Shown here: positions 1 through 61,770 of the stretch, piece by piece | Numbering within the stretch: the first letter of the stretch is position 1 | How the letters are laid out: each line of letters opens with the position of its first letter | Assembly (NCBI GenBank): GCA_039545335.1 | Contig: BCIN01000005.1 | Location: forward strand, 1,082,641 to 1,146,640 | DNA: 64,000 nt | Reading direction: 5' to 3' | Source of the DNA: Kondoa subrosea | Taxonomy: Eukaryota | Program-made: the position numbers and the translations under genes | The notes under the pieces: model-generated | Databases searched by the model: none | Seen by the model: the letters and a program-made list of their open reading frames with translations, nothing else | What the model was told of the DNA's origin: nothing

Positions 1-391
1 GTGCAAAAGCGTATAATTCCTTTGTAATTCAATAGGCAATTGATCCACAACTATCGCAGGATCATTACGACGCCCTTCACGCACGAGACAAGAACTCACT
101 ATCAAAGTAATCTTCCGCAAACAAGCGAAAGTGTTTCTCTTCTTCTTCTAAAGCAGCAGCTCGTGCTTCCATATCAACCTCACCAGGAGCATCTTCATCT
201 TCATCTACCACTGCTGAGGGCTCTGCAGGTCCATTTTCTAACTCTTGCAATTCATTGTTATCTTTCTCTACTTCTTGTCCTGGCTCTGGCTGTTCCTCTT
301 CTTGCTCCCCTATCTCTGAAAGCTCCTCAACCTCCTCAATCTCTTCTACTTCAGCTTCAGGTGTCACTTTCCTACGTTTCCGAGGCGGCAT
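1..391 (-). CDS. ING-family (inhibitor of growth, Yng/Pho23-like) chromatin protein, 5' part; runs off window start
   Basis: MPPRKRRK NLS-like start and acidic tract. Splicing GT-AG intron 99..51 gives DYFD-IVDQLPIELQRNYTLLH, the ING N-terminal helix motif. PHD finger not in window. Confidence 0.8.
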
Positions 392-438
392 CGCTGTTCC
401 AGGAAAACAAAATAACGCTTGATCTCGCTCGAGCAAGA

Positions 439-1123
439 ATGCAGGTCACGAGAATTCTAAGTCAAGTTATCAGGTCTTCTTCTGCACCAGTCTCGAGGGT
501 TGTAACAACAGCAAGAAGGTGTCCGCCCAGGCTTACACCGCTGTTATCGAGGGAATTGCACCATTCGTTTGTTCGATGGCAGCAGCATACAATCAGGTTA
601 GCTCGCCCCCTTTGCGTACAGGCAGATCAAACTGACAGATTTGTTACACAGTGATCTCGAGATCAGCCAATATCATCTCGTTGCGGACAACACGATGGAA
701 AGCATGACTGAATATTTCGAAGAATTGATAGAAGATATAGGTGACGATGTTAGAGGATCAGATGTAGAATACTCTGTGCGTCTATTCTTCAATTTAAAAA
801 AAGGTAGCTCACTCAACTGATGATGCTTGAGCTTTGCAAGTCTGGAGTACTTACACTTCGGATTGGAGATGATACTTATGTCGTCAACAAACAACCTCCG
901 AATAAGCAAATCTGGTTATCTTCTCCTAAATCGTGAGTGAGCTTCGTTTCAGATCTGGTCATAGGCTAAAACTGTCGGAAGGGGACCAAAACGATATGAC
1001 TATGATGAATCTACAAAGCAATGGTTTTATGCTAGAGACAACAGCACACTCAAGCAGCTATTGGATACAGAGTTGAAGGAGCTGATACATAGGGAGATTG
1101 ATGTCGATGTGGGAAATGCTTGA
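439..1123 (+). CDS. YFH1: Frataxin homolog, mitochondrial (4 exons)
   Basis: Arg/Ser-rich presequence. Spliced product contains [48 protein letters not shown], the frataxin signature. Confidence 0.95.
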
Positions 1124-1139
1124 GCTTGAAGTGAATGGA

Positions 1140-1337
1140 TCAAACTACACTTGGGCCATTTGCGCATCGGCCTTTGCCAAGTCTCAAGTATAGCAAAGGA
1201 ATGCAAAGAAAGCAGAAAGGTCTCAAAAGTTGACTGGAACAAAGTGAAAACACGGCAAAATCCGACGAGCATACACCTTCTATCCTTTCACGAAGACCAA
1301 AGATCTCATCCAGCAAGTCATAAGGCAGGCTTAACAT
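1140..1337 (-). pseudogene. Truncated inverted paralog of the adjacent F-box-like gene (N-terminus only)
   Basis: MLSLPYDLLDEIFGLRERIEGVCSSDFAVFSLCS...FCFLCIPLLY aligns by eye with MVSLPVDLLVEVFDLYSSVEGVNAKDWSVLSLCSKSFHSLVLPRLY (1676+). It stops after 65 codons. Confidence 0.65.
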
Positions 1338-1675
1338 TGTACTATAAGCCAGAAACAGCTTCAGAGACCCCAAAATTTCAGGCAGATTGAGAGCTTCTGG
1401 GGCGCTGTATGCTGAGCTGCCGCATACCCTCCTCCTGTAAGGTCTAGCGTATCCTGGTGTTAATCTAAAGCGCGAGCTCGACGTCTCGAATCAAGGATTG
1501 TATTTTGCTTCTTGGTCCCAGACGAGCTCTTCAGCTACTTTGGAAGCCGTCATATAGCTGCTCTCCAAAGTATACACGAGTATACGCAAGTACTTGCTGG
1601 TGATCTGGTCTCCTTCAGCAGCAGCCGAGCTCGGACTGGCTTGCGTCGACTTTTGAGCTTGGATTCGGCGGAACA

Positions 1676-3294
1676 ATGGTTTCACTGCCCGTCGACCTTC
1701 TGGTGGAGGTGTTTGATCTGTATTCAAGTGTCGAAGGCGTGAATGCAAAGGATTGGAGCGTTCTGTCGCTTTGCTCAAGTTTGTGTTTTCCCCATGTTAC
1801 ATTTGGGCGAGCTTGGCCTTATAGTGCGAGTCTAGAGTCCTTTCACTCTCTTGTTCTTCCAAGACTCTATCGCAAGATCTTACCAACCCAGCTGTTGCAT
1901 CCTCAATTGGCAAAGACTCTCGAAAAGCACTCTGATTACGGGACTATGGTAAAAGAAATCAACTGGACAATTTCGTTGAAGTGGTCGGCGAACCCTTATG
2001 ATGAATGCCATTTACACCAGGCTTATCCTGGTGAATATCTCGACCCGCCTCGGTATTCCGAGAGAAGTTTGCTGGCAAATCTCGAATCGGCTGCGGCAGC
2101 GCTCTCGCATTGCACAAGCCTCACCAAATTGTACCTCGAGATGACATTGGCTGGTGAGTCCGTTGAATGGCAAGACCAATGGCAAGACCGTTTCCGTGAG
2201 GCTTTCATTCCTTGGGACCGCTTGGATATTGAGCTCGGCGGAATGCTCCATCTGGACAATCTGACCGACTTCTCGTTTCAGCCCTTCGATCAAGATCCCA
2301 CAGGTATAACATTATGCTATATTCGCTTGGCTTGGCTTAAACCAATACTTAAAAGCCCACACTTGCGAAATCTTTGTCTTCCAAATTTCCTAGACTTCCG
2401 TGGGTTCTATGAAATAAAATGCGTTTCCCCTGCTCTACGTCGACTTAAGATCTCTAATCCTCGAGGTTTATATGGGAGCGATTCCGCTATGCGAACATTG
2501 CTCCGTTTATGCCCGAATATAGAAGCGTTCAATTTTGACTATGGTCGAAAAAATCCGCATACAATGGGAGATCTCATAAAAAGAATGATTCCACGAATTG
2601 ACTTCGCTTCCGTTATTGAAGTCAGTCTTGGCAGCATGAATCTGGCCGCATCAAATGCAGCGTTCAATATTTCAAGCCCTTTTCCGGCTTTGCGCGACCT
2701 TACAATTGGAATAGAAAGGCTCGACCCCGAAAATCAGTCGGAAACTGGATTAGGGCTTCTGGCAGAATTCGTCGAAGACCTCTTCCCTCTTAAATATCCA
2801 GCTTTCAATCTGGTCAAATTCCGTCTGATGGTCCATCTGCCGTACAAAGTACTCTTCGACGCAAAGTCATCTGGTCTTGCGGCTTCTTTCAAAACTTTGT
2901 TTTCTCGACAAACTTTACCAAACCTCGCCTACTTTGAATTCCAATGTTAACTCAGAAGATCGGATTGTGCAAGTCTAGGGACCATGGAGGATGGGCTTGA
3001 TGCAAGCTGCGAGAGAGTTCCGGAATTGGTGTGTCTCGGTGTTCGGCGCGAATTCTACAAGCTGGCAAGAAGGGTTCCTACTGGATTGAAAGTGAAATGG
3101 ATTCTCGCGTACAATCGGCGCACGAGGATGGAGGATATCAAGAGTTTAGAAGTGCTTGATGGCCAAGTGATTGAGCGAACATGGTCAGAAGAACTGATTT
3201 CGCGATCGTTGGAATCCTGGTTCGCAAACCTGTAAGTCTTCTTTAGCTCATCTACATATAAAGTGGGGTTCATTCTTGTTGCAGAACTCTCTGA
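1676..3294 (+). CDS. F-box-like / LRR-like protein with an in-frame TAA at 2948-2950 (possible pseudogene)
   Basis: F-box-like LPxDLL..LSLCS..LY N-terminus, in-frame intron 1779-1835, LxxLxL repeats (LTKLYL, LRNLCL, LRRLKI, LRDLTI). ORF 2984-3235 continues in the same frame after the TAA. Confidence 0.7.
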
Positions 3295-44400: not shown

Positions 44401-46751
44401 ATGCCTTCCCTTCTCACCTCGGTCTTGAACGAGGCCAAGTCTCAAGGGATCATCGTCTCTTCTCTTGCTGCCATAGTGCTTCTGTTCAGTTCAATAATAC
44501 TGTATCATCTGTCTTATTACTATCTCGATCCACACGGAGTAGGTCTATATCTGGCTTTTCCATGCTTTTGCTGATCTTGTCTTTAAGCTTCGCAAATATC
44601 CTGGACCATTCTGGGCTGCTTTATCTGATACTTGGCTTGGTTGGCAAGCACGAAAAGGCAACAAATATCAAACAGTGCATGATCTTCATAAACGTTATGG
44701 AACATATGTTCGAATAGGTATGCATCGCTTGAGTACAATCAGTTTCTCAGCTGATCAGTACTTGTCTTAGCACCGAACAATCTGTCTATAGCTGATCCGG
44801 ATGCCATAAATCCAGTATACGGACATGGAAACGGAACGAGCAAATCGCCCTTCTACGACGCTTTCGTAGCGACGCACACTCGAGGCTTGTTTAACACTCG
44901 CGATCGAGCGCAGCATTCTCGCAAGAGGAAGATTGTATCTCATGTATTTGCAAAAGGTGCCTTCCGTCTTGCTCGCTGTCGGTGCATGACTCATTGCTGT
45001 ACAGGATCTGTAAATGAGTTTGAACCTTATATTCAAGGCACGATGCGAAACTTCATCAGCAAATGGGATAAGAAATGTACAGAAGGGAAAGACGGATGGT
45101 CTAATTTCTTTGATGGATTGAATTGGTAGTAAGTCACCTTTATTAGGTTCCGAAATACAGTACTGACATCAACATCAGCAACTACCTCGCTTTCGATATT
45201 ATCGGAGATCTAGCTTTGTGAGTTTACTTTGTTCCCTTTATCGGCCCAATGCTTACGGCTCGATAAGCGTACGCTTCAACTACAACAGACCTTTCAGCTA
45301 TCCTGAATTCAATGACAGGGATCACCCTTTGGCATGATTGACCGAGAAGCAGACATTGCATCAGTCGAAACCGATGATGGAAAGGTTCTTGAACTCCCAG
45401 CTGTCAAAATCTTGAACGAACGAGGTGAATTCTCAGCAACTCAAGGATGTCTTATGCCATGGATAAGACCATACATGAAGAGAATAGGTCAGCATCATCT
45501 GACTGTAATTTAGTCATTGGCTCATCAGTTGCGAATGACAGATCCTTGGTTCGCCAGAGGAGCAGCATCAGTCGCAAATCTTTCAGGTATTGCTCGCTAT
45601 CGTGTCAATCAACGATTGCGAGAAGGCGCTGGCGATCGCAAAGATCTACTTTCTCGCTTACAAGCTGCTCGGGACGACAAAGGGGAACCACTAGGCAAAG
45701 ACGAGTTGACAGCTGAGGCGTTAACTCAGTTGTAAGTCCATGATCTGGTGTTCTTACTTTGGAAGACTGATGTATTGTTTGTAGAATTGCTGGAAGGTAA
45801 ATCATTCCGTTACCCATCAGCTAGTATAGTACTAAGAGTACCTGCTTCGGTTTCACCAGTGGTAAGCTGCTCCATCGCCAACTCTGTGCATTCGGAGCTG
45901 ATAATACAAGCAGATACAACCTCAAACAGCTCTTGCGCTATTCAATTTTGGATTTCGCGACATCCTGAAGTAGAGAAGAAATTGATTGCCGAACTGAAAG
46001 AGCGCTTGGATGGCAAGCTTACTGAAGAGAATCCAGTCGTCGATTACGATGATGTGAAAGATCTGTAGGTTGAAGGTCCCTGCTGAGCTACCTATTGACA
46101 TTGCTATATCCTAGACCTTATCTTGACGCGTGCATCAACGAAGCCCTTCGACGGCACTCCACCTCATCCATGGGCTTACCTCGTATTTTACCAGATCATG
46201 TTCAATTCAAGGTGAAAATTTCGTGCCTTGCATGAGACCCAGACTCTGATGTATAGTAGGGCGAACATTTCCTGCCTGGAGCTGTACTATCTGTTCCTCA
46301 TTATACTCTACATCACCTTGATTCATTCTGGGGTGATCCAAATGTTTATCGACCGGAAAGATGGATCGAGCAGGGGAAAGAGCTCGAAAAAGGTTTCTTG
46401 CCGTTCTCATATGGTCCAAGGTCAGTTGTCTCCCTTGACGCTTGGCTCCGTCCCCAATTTGATTCCTTTTCCAGAGGTTGCGTTGGTATGAATGTAGCTA
46501 AGCTGTGAGTTTCACCTTTGACCTACCTTCAGTATAAGCTGACGATTATAACCAGAGAGCTTACGACTTTCATGGCTACTCTTTTCTATCGCTATGAATT
46601 CAAGCTAAAAGATCCATCTTTGGAAGAGTTGCCGACTGTAGAAGGTGTAAGTCAATTTCAGTCTTTGCCGACTCATGCTCATCCTCCTCGACAACAGTTC
46701 TTGCGCAAACCAACAGAGAGCTGGATCGCTATCAAACGTCGTCAACACTGA
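44401..46751 (+). CDS. CYP53: Cytochrome P450, CYP53 family (benzoate 4-monooxygenase-like)
   Basis: LFNTRDRAQHSRKRKIVSH, YLAFDIIGDLAFGSPFGM, LNERGEFSA, ALTQLIAGSDTTSNS, EALR, RPERW, FSYGPRGCVG heme motif, EGFLRKP. Confidence 0.93.
45268..45268 (+). other. Predicted 1-nt coding exon (C) in CYP53
   Basis: Flanked by 50-nt introns 45218-45267 (GTGAGT..AAG) and 45269-45318 (GTACGC..CAG). Required to form the TTC of DLAFG. Confidence 0.75.
45860..45861 (+). other. Predicted 2-nt coding exon (TG) in CYP53
   Basis: CCAG|TG|GTAAGC; yields AG-T G-AT = Ser-Asp of AGSDT. Confidence 0.85.
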
Positions 46752-46947
46752 TATAAAGTAGAAGTACAGCTTAAGCTGGTTGTCAAGGCAAAAGTATAAG
46801 ATCGTTCAGTAGGAGTATAAGGTGTTGATTTGCTCACAAATTGTACAATGCAAATGAAAGATAATATGTTGTATTTGCCCGTTGCTTCCTCCCCCCTTTG
46901 GCTTCCAATCCAAGACGCCTAGAACTCCAAGATCTGCATCGCTCTCC

Positions 46948-48329
46948 ATCTAGTATTGAAGCGAATGTAAGTGAAGTATAGCGCTGCGCATCACAGTACG
47001 TACGAATCCTGTGCGTAGGGCAATTTTTGATTAGTAACACATTTTGCTAAACCGAAATGATCCGAAACGTACCATCAAATCACCAATAACAAAACCCCAA
47101 TTCTCTTTCGGAGCTCTACATTCTTTCGGGTCCAAAAGATTGTACGTTTTCCCGAAAACCAAGAAATGAGCAAACAAGGAATTGAGGTGACCTTCCAAAG
47201 ATAGATGAACAATTTGTGAGAAATGAGCGTGGTACAAGTGAGCAAAGATTCGAAGAAATTGAGTGTAGAGATGTCGGGCTGTCAGAGGGAACATATCGCT
47301 GAATTCTCGGCCTGACATAATATCATGAGAAACTGGATCGATCGGTTTTAAACAGCAGAAGTATTGACCAGCTTTGGTTGGGAAGAGTGATTCGTCACCC
47401 ATGGTCTTTTCTGCCCATGTGAGAACGTAATCTAAAGCTGAAGGTTAACACAACAGTCATTTGTCCGTAAGACATATCCACAGACCTGTATATTCTGTTG
47501 CGGGTACTTTGACCTGCTTCTTTGTCGGACCAGAAGTCCATGTATAGTCCTGTATTCTGCTGAGCTATGCGAATCGATGAAGGAAATAATATATCATACC
47601 ATGCTGTACAAATGTACTTGCGAATTAGCTCAAAGAATTAGCCTGTGCAGCACATTCCGCACCCTGGACCAGCAGACATTGTAGGACATGTATCGCGCGT
47701 GCATTGCTCGCTTATGATTCCAAGAAAGTGGTTCAGGCTGTCAGTGAAGTAAACAGCTTTATCAGCTCGAGACCGATTACCAGCTATGTCCACTGACTTG
47801 TGAAAGAAGTCCACGACTAATTTGCGTCATTAGCTTGATATAGAGTAGTACTAGTATCAACTGACTATTAACTGCTACCCATTCGTTCATGTCTACATCT
47901 TTTGGTAACGCGACAATTGTCTTGAATGATCCTTTGACCAAAGCAGCTTTAACGAACCTGTGCACCTCTGTAAACGCCTATCACATGGTGAAAAGCAACA
48001 AAGCAGACGCACGGTTGACACAAATACAAAGGTCTAGTCGAAGCCTGAGAATAACTTCCGGCCGTCCCATCTTGAGCTTGCTGCTGTTGCTGAGCATGAG
48101 ACTGAGGATCATAACCACCATAAGGTATATTTTGAGCTGTAGGTGTAGTAGGCGATTTCCGTCTAACTCCTCCTCCTAAAGGTACAGCTGTGTTGATTTG
48201 TTGCTGCTGCTGTTGCTGTTGCTGAGAAGGACCTGTGTTGCTTCGGCCTAGACGACTGATCACACAAAAGCTTTGAGGCCTGCGAACCAGGACGTGCAGA
48301 ATCACGACTAACCCGAGGAAGGATGCCAT
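46948..48329 (-). CDS. MOB2: Mob1/phocein family kinase activator, Mob2-like; 3' end approximate
   Basis: PLYLCQPFVKAALVKGSFKTIVALPKDVDMNEWVAVN, CPTMSAG, FPTKAGREF, RIFAHLYHAH, HLNSLFAHF; polyQ N-terminus. Confidence 0.9.
47600..47603 (-). other. Predicted 4-nt exon (CATG) in MOB2
   Basis: TACAG|CATG|GTATGA on minus strand restores SAGPG-MDYTW. Confidence 0.8.
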
Positions 48330-48521: not shown

Positions 48522-51500
48522 ATGTCTGCAATGAAAGCTATCGTCAAGCGAGTCTCCTCGATATTGTTCAGGTTTATGTGTCTGACGAGCTTTGCCTAAG
48601 GTCTTGCCTTTCTGGCAGCGCAGTAGTCTTGAGAGGAAGACAAGGTCGTAAGTCTGCTTCCTTCCTCTTTCGTCCTCTTCTGGCCCGTCCGTTCGCATGC
48701 ATGACACGAAGCACCAAGCGAGCAGCTCTATGTTCCTCTACAGACCATTTGTTGCTGTCTTAGACTTCTGTCTCATCGCTTTCTATTCTACAGCTCAAGG
48801 AGAACCGCCTAAAGAACGTACTCTATACTTGGCAGATCTGAATTGTCCCGTGAGTCTAGTCAAACTAGTTCACATTAGTTTCCTGCTTATTGTGACACAG
48901 CGCATGGGCAATCAATCACGTCCTGATGAAGCTTTCGCCTTTGAATCTAGAGATTTCCTTCGTCTTCTAGTAGTAGGCAAAGAAGTCAATTTCAACATCT
49001 TGCAAACTATTCCTGCTTCCAATGGTCCAGCTTTAGAATTAGGAGATTTAACTTTAGTCAATGGGAATGTGGATGTAGCTTTAGCAATGGTCAAGAATGG
49101 TTGGGCTAAAGTTAAGGAAAGTCGTGGTGGAGAAGATAGTTCGGAGAGGAAGAACAACCTGAAAACTGCTGAAGAAGAAGCCAAGAAAGAAGGAAAGGGA
49201 CTTTGGGGATCAGAGAGTGAAGCTGTCAGTCTTTTATTCATCTTGTCTCCGATTGAGGTTCGATGAAGAAACAATCTGACAGATATCTGATGTCGCTCAA
49301 TCCGTTTCTAACACACAAGAATTCCTCAGCGAATGCAAAGGCAAACAGATTGATGGTATATCTTCTTCTTATATGTATTGTTAACGCTGAATCGCGTTCT
49401 AGCTATCGTCGAGCAAGTCAGCAACGGAACAACACTTCGAATCCGTTTGCTGCTTTCGCCAAAGAAGCATCAAATACTTACTATTCAAATGGCTGGAGCT
49501 CGTGCACCACGAGCGCCGAACAATGCTTCTGGAGCAGACGACTCTTCAGAAGAGCAGGGAGCCGAATCCCAATTGTCAGTCTTTCACTGCCCAATCAATC
49601 ATAGTCTAATGGCTTCATGATAGCTTCACTGCTTCTCGTCTGCTTCAACGTACAGTCTCTATTGAAATTCTAGGTCTTCCAACGAATGCTTCACCCACAA
49701 CACCATTTATTGGCGTAGTGCATCATCCAGCAGGATCTATTTCCTCCCTTTTACTGTCTTACGGTTTAGCAAGAGTAGAAGATCGTCATGCTTCTTTCCT
49801 CGGAGCAGAAAAGATGGCCGCCATGCGAAAAAGCGAAAACGAAGCCAAACTCAACAAAAGAGGACTTTGGAAATCGCACACTCCAACTACTACCAATGGA
49901 GGTGTCAAACAAAAAGGATACGAAGCTTTGGTCGTTAGAGTTTGGAGCGGTGATTCTATCGGTGTAAGAGAAGGTAAAGAAGGCTTAGGACCGGAGAAGA
50001 GAATCACTTTGAGTAGTGTGCGAAGCGCGAGGTCAGTATATGTTCCTTCTGTAGCTGATTGCGAAGCTCAGAAATTACAATAACGGACAGGCCAACTGAT
50101 CCTTCCAAAGGTGGTTTAGCTAATGATGCCAAAGAAGCTCTTCGAAAGCGAATCATCGGCAAAGTAGTTCACGTTCAACTAGATTACACCAAACCCAAAG
50201 AAGGAGACTATGAAGAGAAAGAGTGCTGCACTGTAAAAATGCACAACGGCTCTAATGTTGCTGAATTCTTGGTCGAGAAAGGTTTGGTCAATGTCATCAA
50301 GCATAGAAGAGATGATGAGGATCGATCGTGCGTCGAATGTGTTGATTGATCTGTCAAGATCTTTGGTTGACATTCTGCGATGTACAGGTCGGAACTGGAC
50401 AAATTGCTAATAGCTGAAGAAAAGTGAGCCAAGTGAATGCTGTTCAGACTGTCCTAATCATACATGCTGTTTCCTACAGAGCTCAAACGGAAGGCAAAGG
50501 CGTTCACTCCAACAAGGACTCACCACTACCTAGAATGGGAGATGCATCAGAGGTCGGTGGACCAATAGTTCATTGACTATCTAGCTCATTGAATGTAACA
50601 TTTATCTGACAGTCTGCAGCGAAAGCATCCTCCTTCTTACCCGGATTCAAGCGAGCTGGCCGAATTCCAGTGGTTGTTGATTTCGTTGCCGCTGGATCAA
50701 GATTCAAGGTACGACATGCTGGCAATGTACATTCTGCTTACTCACTTGAATCTCTATGAACAGGTTTTCCTGCCCAAACAAGATGTCAAAGCTACTCTAG
50801 TACTCGCCGGTATTCGCGCGCCTCGAACAGCTAGGAACGCAAATGAGAAATCAGAACCGTACGGAACTGAAGCTTATGATTTCGCTGTTCGCAAGACTTT
50901 GCAACGTGATGCAGAGATGGAAGTCATTGAGACCGACCGAAGCGGAGGTAAATCGAGTGTTGCTCTTCTTGCTAAGAAAAAGTATTTAGCGGCATTTCGA
51001 TTTACAGGATTCATCGGAGCTCTATACCTGGCCAAGACAGAAAACTTTGCAGCTTCGCTCGTACGAGAGGGTTTTGCCAATGTTAGCGAGTATGGTCAAG
51101 ACAAAATCAGCTTTTCGCGCGAACTACAAACAGCCGAAGATGAAGCGAAGAAAGGGCGAAAGAATGTGTGTTCCGATGACATTCGCCCTGTCACTTTTTC
51201 TGATATCATGATTTCCAGATTTGGTCAGACTACGATGAAGATGCGGCAGCTGAACAGCAAACGAATGGCAAAGAGGAAGTGGAAAGCAGGAAAGAATATG
51301 TTGATCTACTCATTTCCGATTCTCGACCAAGCCCTTTCGGTTTCTCTGTCCAGATACTAAAGAACGGAGGTCAGTCAAGAAAGGCTAGTATCAGTTTCAT
51401 ACTGATCAGACACTCTTGATATGACAGGCATTCCTGAGCTCGAAAGACTCATGAAAGATTTCTCTTTGCACCACAAAGCACCTCCTTCCGCTTCGGCAGC

Positions 51501-60300: not shown

Positions 60301-61770
60301 TACAGCGAGAAGATTGATCTCACGATTTGCCAGCTGCTGATGAGAGTTTGCCAATGACATTACCAAGCGCGAGCAAACTGCAAGACATGCAATCAGATGG
60401 TTTAATTCCAATGAGAAAGATAATTACCTCTTATTGATATGAGAGCCCTCAGCATTCCGTTCTGCTACTTCGCTACCTTGACCTGAACTCATCTTCTCAC
60501 TTCCAGCCAAATCAATGAGGTTCTTAGTCCGGCCCAAATCAGTCTAAATCTATCGTTTTGCGTCAAAGAGCTCACAAGCTGACTGATCCGCGTTGATCCT
60601 GTCCCTTCCTTCAGAGTGCTTTCAATCGTCATAGTGAAAACACAGTGACTTCTACTCGATCGAGCATTCCAATCTGTTGTTCCAACATGCCTTGAATGTT
60701 CACCTCGATCCAACGCATCAAACACTTCATCTGATCGAGTAACTACCTCTTCTTTCAAAGGATCAACATAAATCGTTCCATTTCTTTCACGGATCTTAAG
60801 TTCAGTAGGGAGAGGAGAAGCTCGACCTGAAGAAGGGGAAGAAGGTGATAGTAAGTCTTTGAGTGATTCGTTGTAGATTTCGAGATAGGATACTCGTAGC
60901 AGGTATTGCCGGTCTTCGTCTTCTTCTATTGCGGAGAAGACTTGAGAAACCGCTTGATGAATGATTCCAGGTTCACCAGGACTTCCCATCATGGCTTTAC
61001 AGATATATATCAGTACAATATTTCAGCTCGCCGGATGAGGACTGACTGTGCGTCTTGCCAGATCCAGTTTGACCATAAGCGAAAACCGTTCCGTTAAACC
61101 CTTCGATTGCAGCTTTCACAACCCGACCAATCTGTTGCTCATACAAATCTTCCGTAGTTTGTGTAGGTAAGATGATGGAATCGAAGCGGAAATCATAAGT
61201 ATCTTCTTTGCCTTTCTGACCGCCTCTTGATTTGATCAAAGGATGATGTTCCGATAACTTGATTTGAGCTTCTTCAGGGTTCAAAGTCCATATAGGTTCT
61301 GCTTCATTCGAAGGTTTACCAGGTCTAACACGAACGCAAACGACTATATTCTGAGCCTTGCCATCTGCTGAATCGGAAGATTGGATAGTAGGTCTAGCTT
61401 TACGTGTTTTCGGAGTTGACAAGGTCGCTATAGAGTTGTTAGACGATTCTCGAGCTGTATCGAATCCCCGTTCGGTCTCTGACATTGTCGAAATAGATAC
61501 TCGAGTACCGCCAAAGACATCTTCGGCTTCTGAAGCGGATTCCATAGAAAAGGAAGAGGAGGCTGTTGAAGTTTCTGGGTCATCTGTTGATTTGCGAGCC
61601 TTCTTGGCTTTTGTAGGTGAAGCTGATGATTTCTTACTTGGGCTGCTCGAAGCTTTCTTGGACTTGCCGTTCAAAGTGGAAGGAATAGAAGGGACTCGAG
61701 GTAGAGTAGGAGCCAAAGCAAGCTCTGGAGTGGCTTGTCGCTTCTTGCGAGAGCTCCTTGGTGCAGACAT
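57345..61770 (-). CDS. Kinesin-7 (CENP-E/Kip2-like) motor with long coiled coil
   Basis: [61 protein letters not shown]; coiled-coil stalk. Confidence 0.93.

Follow-up and report, generated by a model that had tools for sequence, protein, structure and literature searches.

Does a cytochrome P450 gene of Kondoa subrosea contain a coding exon of one nucleotide (nt)? The gene in question, a CYP53-like P450 gene, lies on the plus strand of a stretch of 64,000 nt (GenBank assembly GCA_039545335.1, contig BCIN01000005.1, positions 1,082,641 to 1,146,640), which is referred to here as the window and in whose coordinates all positions are given. Within it, two out-of-phase exons stand 101 nt apart, and a reading of the letters made without database searches (the sequence-only reading) had proposed that one C at the center of this gap is an exon in its own right. 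Based upon the genomic sequence and its relatives, we consider that the C at 45268 is probably an authentic exon of one nucleotide, in a CYP53-type P450 gene that is intact and under selection.

The P450 gene and the junction at 45268

The gene and the parts of it that meet at the junction are as follows.

44401..46751, plus strand: CYP53-like cytochrome P450 gene, with 16 exons, 15 GT-AG introns of 48-63 nt, and 524 codons plus TGA
45179..45217, plus strand: exon 5 (39 nt), encoding (Y)NYLAFDIIGDLA plus TT, the first two bases of a Phe codon
45218..45267, plus strand: upstream intron of 50 nt, with donor GTGAGT, branch-like CTTAC at 45252-45256 and acceptor AAG
45268, plus strand: proposed single-nucleotide exon C, third base of TTC (the Phe of DLAFG), in the context AAG/C/GTACGC
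45269..45318, plus strand: downstream intron of 50 nt, with donor GTACGC, branch-like CTGAA at 45303-45307 and acceptor CAG
45319..45487, plus strand: exon 7 (169 nt), starting GGA TCA CCC TTT GGC, which encodes GSPFG

The sequence at the junction is exactly what the sequence-only reading had described. The last bases of exon 5, up to 45217, are GAT CTA GCT TT, and GTGAGT occupies 45218-45223; a CAG ends at 45318, with GGA TCA CCC TTT from 45319 onward. Joining the two exons directly does frameshift the DLAFG motif, as that reading had held, and yields a translation of ...GDLALDHPLA followed by a stop. At the center of the gap is GATAAG/C/GTACGC, in which the C at 45268 divides the 101 nt into 50 + 1 + 50, so that a single base stands directly between an AG acceptor and a GT donor. 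When this base is left out the frame is broken; when it is included, TTC (Phe) is completed and DLAFGSPFG is restored, gapless against all four of the uninterrupted open reading frames (ORFs) from relatives that are described below. The claim that the gap is about twice the local intron size also holds, at 101 nt vs 48-63 nt for the introns of the gene, and each 50-nt half falls within the range of the gene's other introns. The branch-like motif that had been noted in each half, CTTAC in one and CTGAA in the other, places its A 12 nt before the 3' end in both. The gap reads as two complete short introns one base apart, each with a GT donor, a CTNAN motif and an AG acceptor; branch-like CTNAN motifs with the A at 10-13 nt from the 3' end are also found in introns 1, 3, 4, 10, 12 and 14.

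Read exon by exon on the plus strand, the gene extends from an ATG at 44401 to a TGA at 46749-46751, and its conceptual translation of 524 amino acids (aa) is without an internal stop once the 1-nt exon is included. AGSDTT, EALR, PERW and FSYGPRGCVG are all present in it, in keeping with the P450 signature motifs (I-helix AGxDTT, ExxR, a PERF-like motif and the heme loop FxxGxRxCxG) that are given in PMC12940212. The window gene was compared with the Pfam profile PF00067 (p450) exon by exon, and three of the six exons tested match it collinearly (profile positions 277-309, 322-352 and 359-408), two of them above the cut-off. Whole-protein matches to PF00067 are those of two relatives, the uninterrupted ORFs L002 (2.6e-67) and L001 (3.3e-80). 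In a Pfam scan of the 147 window ORFs of at least 90 aa there was no P450 match in the CYP53-like gene, because the exons of the gene are short.

The named homologues are Pucciniomycotina P450s, titled cytochrome P450 or benzoate 4-monooxygenase in the source databases, whose names are used here. Identity to the window protein is 66% for an Atractiella P450, 58% for a Microbotryum protein (UniRef name 'Benzoate 4-...'), 50% for a Phenoliferia 'benzoate 4-monooxygenase, partial' and 51% for an Auricularia 'pc-bph'. Under the P450 nomenclature rule, identity above 40% to named members of a family places a protein in the same family, and the identities to these four proteins (50-66%) all exceed that value. 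From homology only, we infer a protein of the CYP53 or benzoate 4-monooxygenase type with a putative benzoate para-hydroxylase function, the family label being one without a curated CYP number.

A scan of the metagenome collection with P0001 returned five loci (L001-L005), none of which belongs to the same species or represents the genomic DNA of a close relative. Four of them provide the uninterrupted ORFs, to which the window protein is 87.3% (L002; 453/519), 77.5% (L001), 57.8% (L003) and 59.4% (L004) identical. These four alignments run end to end and are gapless at both DLAFGSPFG and AGSDTT, and the site itself reads GCTTTCGGA in L001 and L004, GCCTTTGGA in L002 and GCCTTCGGT in L003. The exon 5 peptide is the same in L001 and differs by one residue in L002. 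Where the window would read GCT TT-C-GGA, L002 reads GCC TTT GGA. By tblastx, position 607 of L002 lies opposite window position 45215 and position 611 opposite 45319; thus, exactly one base is missing between 45217 and 45319. Of the 12 database homologues, 11 contain GDLAFGS[P/L]FGM; the sequence of the remaining one begins farther downstream. Comparison of the window gene with L002 gave a proportion of nonsynonymous differences (pN) of 0.092 vs a proportion of synonymous differences (pS) of 0.744, the latter saturated, and strong purifying selection on the P450 gene follows from these values.

A transcript origin of L001-L004 is suggested because their ORFs are uninterrupted; a poly(A) tail was found on none of the four. 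L002 (1-2654) carries an uninterrupted CYP53 ORF at 2-1567 (plus strand) and a convergent, likewise uninterrupted Mob1 ORF at 1727-2599 (minus strand). This gene order is that of the window, where the P450 gene has 15 introns and Mob1 at least six, and L002 resembles spliced transcripts from a syntenic relative that were merged into one contig. A separate 54-aa ORF fragment from a relative's 45-kb contig (P0013) is 83% identical to exon 7; it ends ..KKIGQS and runs into an intron placed as the window's intron 7.

Splicing across the gap and competing explanations

Micro-exons of the form AG-x-GT/GC were enumerated within the gap, which yielded three frame-keeping solutions, two of them with a 5-nt intron. 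Among the canonical ways to mend the gap, only the 1-nt exon leaves introns that are plausibly viable. The frame of GGA is closed across the gap by a TGA at 45313-45315, and consequently no upstream acceptor can extend exon 7. A wider enumeration from exon 4 to exon 7, in which a path could contain at most three GT/GC-AG introns, each 35-160 nt long, produced 8232 splice paths, 774 of which are open and in frame. The path with the 1-nt exon ranked top against the peptides of both L002 (195 vs 173 for the runner-up) and L001 (208 vs 186). Retention of a single half-intron was tried and rejected, the upstream half reading GCT TTG TGA and the downstream half adding 50 nt.

How often such an arrangement arises by chance was estimated from 20000 dinucleotide shuffles of the gap. 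A central AG[C/T]GT with both halves at 48-63 nt appeared in 52 of them (0.26%), and in 231 (1.2%) when the halves were relaxed to 40-70 nt. In the window itself, a central AG[C/T]GT occurs in 5 of 448 101-mers of the form GT..AG, the real site counted.

Splice-site strength was judged against introns called by a crude Viterbi gene finder, which supplied approximately 153 putative introns elsewhere in the window, some of them surely false; the finder is unreliable in that two training rounds disagree at this locus, Mob1 is mis-modelled and antisense 'genes' are called. The median length of the 153 predicted introns is 55 nt, and 101 nt equals or exceeds 150 of them. The outer donor, GTGAGT, scores 9.2 bits (78th percentile of the predicted introns) and the outer acceptor, CAG, 7.3 bits (67th percentile). 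The inner donor, agc/GTACGC, scores 5.0 bits, which is the 11th percentile of the predicted introns and the 91st of all GT dinucleotides. Only when seeded with 11 introns of the P450 gene itself did the finder select the 1-nt exon. Of the 153 predicted introns, all outside the P450 gene, four are at least 100 nt long (101, 161, 166 and 199 nt), and some of these may be either introns with hidden micro-exons or false calls. A search for introner-like repeats found none, in that none of the 15 introns of the gene matched elsewhere in the window beyond chance matches of 11-16 nt.

The sequence-only reading had also stated that AAG acceptors are used elsewhere in the window. For the one at 44587, in intron 1 of the P450 gene, this is borne out by a gapless alignment across ..DPHG/LRKYPGP... 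The sites at 840, 981 and 48600 are candidate acceptors, in contexts that on inspection look intron-like (e.g. ctgacgagctttgcctaag/ at 48600). A predicted kinesin intron at 60995-61046 on the minus strand likewise has an AAG acceptor, and its position agrees with the Pfam kinesin coordinates of both flanking ORFs.

If the C is an exon, the two introns would be recognized by intron definition, each as a unit of about 50 nt whose sites are paired and which is removed on its own, a view that draws on what is known of fungi with short introns and on the discussion in PMC4674806. Only one base separates the inner acceptor from the inner donor, and two spliceosomes presumably could not both sit there, so the two introns would be removed one after the other. 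Either order would leave a usable site, namely AAG/CGG if the downstream intron were removed first, or TTC/GTACGC if the upstream intron were. The spliced product would read GCT TTC GGA TCA (..DLAFGSPFG..), and a junction that includes the C would appear as GCTTTCGGATCA. Were the inner sites skipped, the strong outer pair GTGAGT...CAG would take out the entire 101 nt, and the resulting mRNA would be frameshifted, reach a stop early and read GCTTTGGATCA at the junction.

The accuracy of the genomic bases, and specifically whether the assembly had deleted a base before GTGAGT, had been raised as a check by the sequence-only reading. Contigs that Logan assembled independently from the read sets of two DNA runs, at depths of 144.8 and 55.6, are identical to the window over the 2360 nt of 44401-46760, without a single difference or gap, and so agree with it at both exon edges; the comparison is at contig level, and both read sets are from one sample, perhaps the assembly's own source. 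Since the read sets may be the source of the assembly, an assembler artefact is excluded by this agreement, with which a mutation of the isolate would be compatible. The loss of one base through a sequencing or assembly error, such as a fourth T ahead of GTGAGT or a fourth G behind CAG, could draw on the short runs (TTT, GGG) in which both exon edges fall and on the possibility that both DNA runs are the assembly's own source, but the agreement of the two Logan assemblies with the window and the centered AG/C/GT, for which a dropped base offers no explanation, leave it only a very faint chance. A real one-base deletion at an exon edge is another matter. In that case the gene would be a pseudogene or null allele of the isolate, the 101 nt would be one intron and AG/C/GT would be coincidental, as the weak inner acceptor and the single sample behind both read sets would allow. 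Against this, the gene is otherwise open over 524 codons, bar two ultra-short exons, and has the low pN (0.092) relative to pS (0.744) given above; a qualifying central site arose in only 0.26% of shuffles (1.2% with the looser lengths), the branch-like motif stands at an equal distance of 12 nt in both halves, and a second double-length gap of the gene is built alike around TG. We regard such a deletion as improbable.

Other routes accept the bases as they are and differ in how the gap is spliced. The runner-up path of the enumeration, open and in frame with scores of 173 and 186, is a single GC-AG intron at 45213-45318 (106 nt), which keeps the frame at the cost of the Ala-Phe of DLAFG (..IIGDLGSPFG..). 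Its donor, cta/GCTTTG, has no match at +3 to +6 with the common donors of the window (GTGAGT, GTCAGT, GTAAGT), the two residues dropped are retained by 11 of 12 homologues and by all four uninterrupted ORFs, and the path lies 22 units below that with the 1-nt exon, which makes this intron hardly credible. Purely as arithmetic, keeping either G45218 or G45318 would yield a TTG codon. Such an outcome would take either a non-canonical TG-AG or GT-CA intron shifted by one base or a -1 ribosomal frameshift on an mRNA from which all 101 nt had been spliced, and would put Leu in place of Phe (DLALGSPFG). Such a route has next to no probability given that all 15 introns of the model are GT-AG, that GCTTTGG contains no slippery heptamer, and that Phe is present in every homologue seen. 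Partial or regulated use of the exon overlaps the reading of a genuine 1-nt exon and differs from it in efficiency only: the outer sites would usually remove the 101 nt, the resulting mRNA would presumably be degraded, and the 1-nt exon would be included in a fraction of transcripts. The outer sites are indeed stronger than the inner ones (donor 9.2 vs 5.0 bits, acceptor 7.3 vs -0.3 bits), and plant VPS55 has isoforms with and without its 1-nt exon, according to PMC8831610. However, 101 nt is at the upper end of the predicted introns (equal to or above 150 of 153) in a gene whose intron size is held tightly near 50 nt, and strong purifying selection argues for a productive mRNA. Predominantly partial use thus appears unlikely.

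The single-nucleotide exon is preferred with several observations weighing against it. The inner acceptor, GATAAG/cg, scores -0.3 bits; each of the 153 predicted introns scores higher, and among all AG dinucleotides in the window it ranks at the 42nd percentile. In the predicted set, AAG acceptors number 4 of 153 and GTACGC donors 1 of 153. Retrained on the 153 outside introns, the Viterbi finder picks an intron at 45129-45213, a 4-nt exon CTTT and the whole 101 nt as one intron. Within DLAFG..PFG, no intron is present in the three distant intron-bearing relatives inspected (P0005, P0010 and L005). Support for the junction in mRNA consists of genomic sequence and homology, and a real mutation of the isolate is compatible with read sets that share one sample. 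The path picked by the retrained finder (an 85-nt intron, CTTT and a 101-nt intron) was itself rejected, as it deletes the conserved NYLAFDIIGDLA that is in frame at 45179-45217.

Single-base exons in other systems

The sequence-only reading took Arabidopsis APC11 to be the one reported case of a 1-nt exon. That premise is out of date, as PMC8831610, PMC12230235 and PMC12940212 add further cases, including fungal P450 genes. The closest likeness is to the CYP621A P450 genes of Fusarium (Nelson and Syed 2026), in which a 1-nt exon was confirmed by RNA reads (PMC12940212). There, as in the window, a fungal P450 gene has a single base between AG and GT in a gap about twice the usual intron length, the base joins out-of-phase exons inside a conserved motif, and gene models miss it. 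The Fusarium exon differs in that it is a G (AGGGT) in a PKG motif of an ascomycete, with at least 20 orthologues and 18 RNA reads behind it (PMC12940212), whereas the window case is a C (AAG/C/GT) in the DLAFG motif of a Pucciniomycotina-like basidiomycete and is known from sequence. In a long-read annotation of Coprinopsis cinerea, 13 one-nt, 57 two-nt and 27 three-nt exons were listed, and microexons were enriched in P450 genes (PMC12230235). Coprinopsis is likewise a basidiomycete with short introns, and one P450 gene of the window has both a proposed 1-nt and a proposed 2-nt exon; the Coprinopsis exons rest on full-length transcripts, in contrast to the genomic and homology evidence available here.

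Single-nucleotide exons are also reported in Arabidopsis APC11 (PMC4674806) and, more broadly, in plant APC11 and VPS55 (PMC8831610). As proposed for the window gene, these involve a single-base exon for which stepwise splicing has been put forward (intron definition plus recursive removal), and in APC11 the identity of the base was found to be immaterial (PMC4674806). The APC11 and VPS55 exon is described as constitutive (PMC4674806, PMC8831610). The plant introns are long (the A is found at 333 nt in a gap of 422 nt), and conservation of the exon extends across land plants, whereas the introns in the window are 50 nt each. Micro-exons of 2-10 aa had been noted in Phanerochaete P450 genes by 2005 (PMC1184071). 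When the literature was searched for a microexon case in CYP53, only PMC1184071 and PMC12940212 surfaced, and neither contains this case as far as the text covered extends, supplementary gene lists not being covered; within the same limits, no report of a 1-nt exon in Pucciniomycotina was found. The CYP53 family has been discussed as an antifungal target (PMC12940212).

One-base exons and their enrichment in fungal P450 genes are already published, and no new kind of biology is presented by this locus. If real, the exon would add one more case in fungi of an exon at the minimum possible length, in a Pucciniomycotina-like basidiomycete. Gene finders would truncate or frameshift the P450 gene, and because exons of 4 nt or less recur in the window, annotation of this genome needs micro-exon-aware mapping. 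Aligners would overlook junctions of this kind unless given them in advance, as was done for soybean APC11 (PMC8831610). The gap also offers a compact 101-nt substrate for the order in which two abutting introns are removed.

Two further known arrangements bear a partial resemblance to the locus. At the zero-nucleotide recursive splice sites (ratchet points) of Drosophila and vertebrates, AG and GT are juxtaposed and nothing is retained. The 3' splice site directly followed by a 5' splice site, together with stepwise removal, is a shared feature, but in the window AG and GT are not juxtaposed, one coding base between them would be kept, and the introns are tiny rather than giant. In the stwintrons of filamentous fungi, an inner intron splits a splice signal of an outer intron. 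The likeness is that two short fungal introns would be removed in succession from one gap. A stwintron reading was nevertheless rejected, since no splice signal is split and removal of neither half makes a new site; the two introns are side by side, not nested.

Other ultra-short exons and neighboring genes

Further ultra-short exons are predicted in the P450 gene and in the adjacent Mob1 gene.

45785-45796, plus strand: 12-nt exon of the P450 gene, directly preceding the upstream intron of the 2-nt exon, in the I-helix region
45860-45861, plus strand: 2-nt exon TG of the P450 gene, cag/TG/gtaagc, between introns at 45797-45859 (63 nt) and 45862-45913 (52 nt)
47600-47603, minus strand: 4-nt exon CATG of the Mob1 gene, cag/CATG/gtatga, between introns at 47604-47662 (59 nt) and 47550-47599 (50 nt)

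Joining GGA AG, TG and AT ACA produces the AGSDTT of the I-helix, and of 17570 splice paths enumerated, the one with the TG exon fits L002 and L001 best; a qualifying site around TG appeared in 120 of 20000 shuffles. The CATG exon of Mob1, read directly from the sequence, gives ..MSAGPGMDYTW.., an exact match to the Mob1 ORF of L002. Exons of 1, 2 and 4 nt are thus placed in two adjacent genes, the latter two being required by homology and lying within 2.4 kb of the locus, and ultra-short exons are, as judged from these gene structures, apparently a habit of this genome. Two of these three exons fall in the most conserved P450 motifs, and we tentatively raise the broader and rather doubtful idea that exon length might have no effective lower limit in an intron-dense lineage, that AG/N/GT might be a common footprint of introns gained beside introns, and that the obligatory ordered, recursive-like splicing of such sites, which on failing yields a premature stop, could serve as an inbuilt control of expression.

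The remaining genes of the window were mapped by the Pfam scan of its long ORFs, and strands are given where they were assigned.

About 3.8 kb: DnaJ
5.1-9.3 kb, minus strand: RasGEF
About 10-12.2 kb: tannase
15.4-16.8 kb, minus strand: class-V aminotransferase
17.4-19.8 kb, minus strand: carboxylesterase
20.6 kb: BTB
About 25 kb, minus strand: amino-acid permease
27.7-33.9 kb: MOR2/PAG1
40.5-41.3 kb, minus strand: RGS
46.9-48.3 kb, minus strand: Mob1
48.5-52.3 kb: Tudor-SN-like SNase repeats
53-55.1 kb: Hsp70
60.5-61.8 kb, minus strand: kinesin
63.4 kb, minus strand: tRNA U5-methyltransferase

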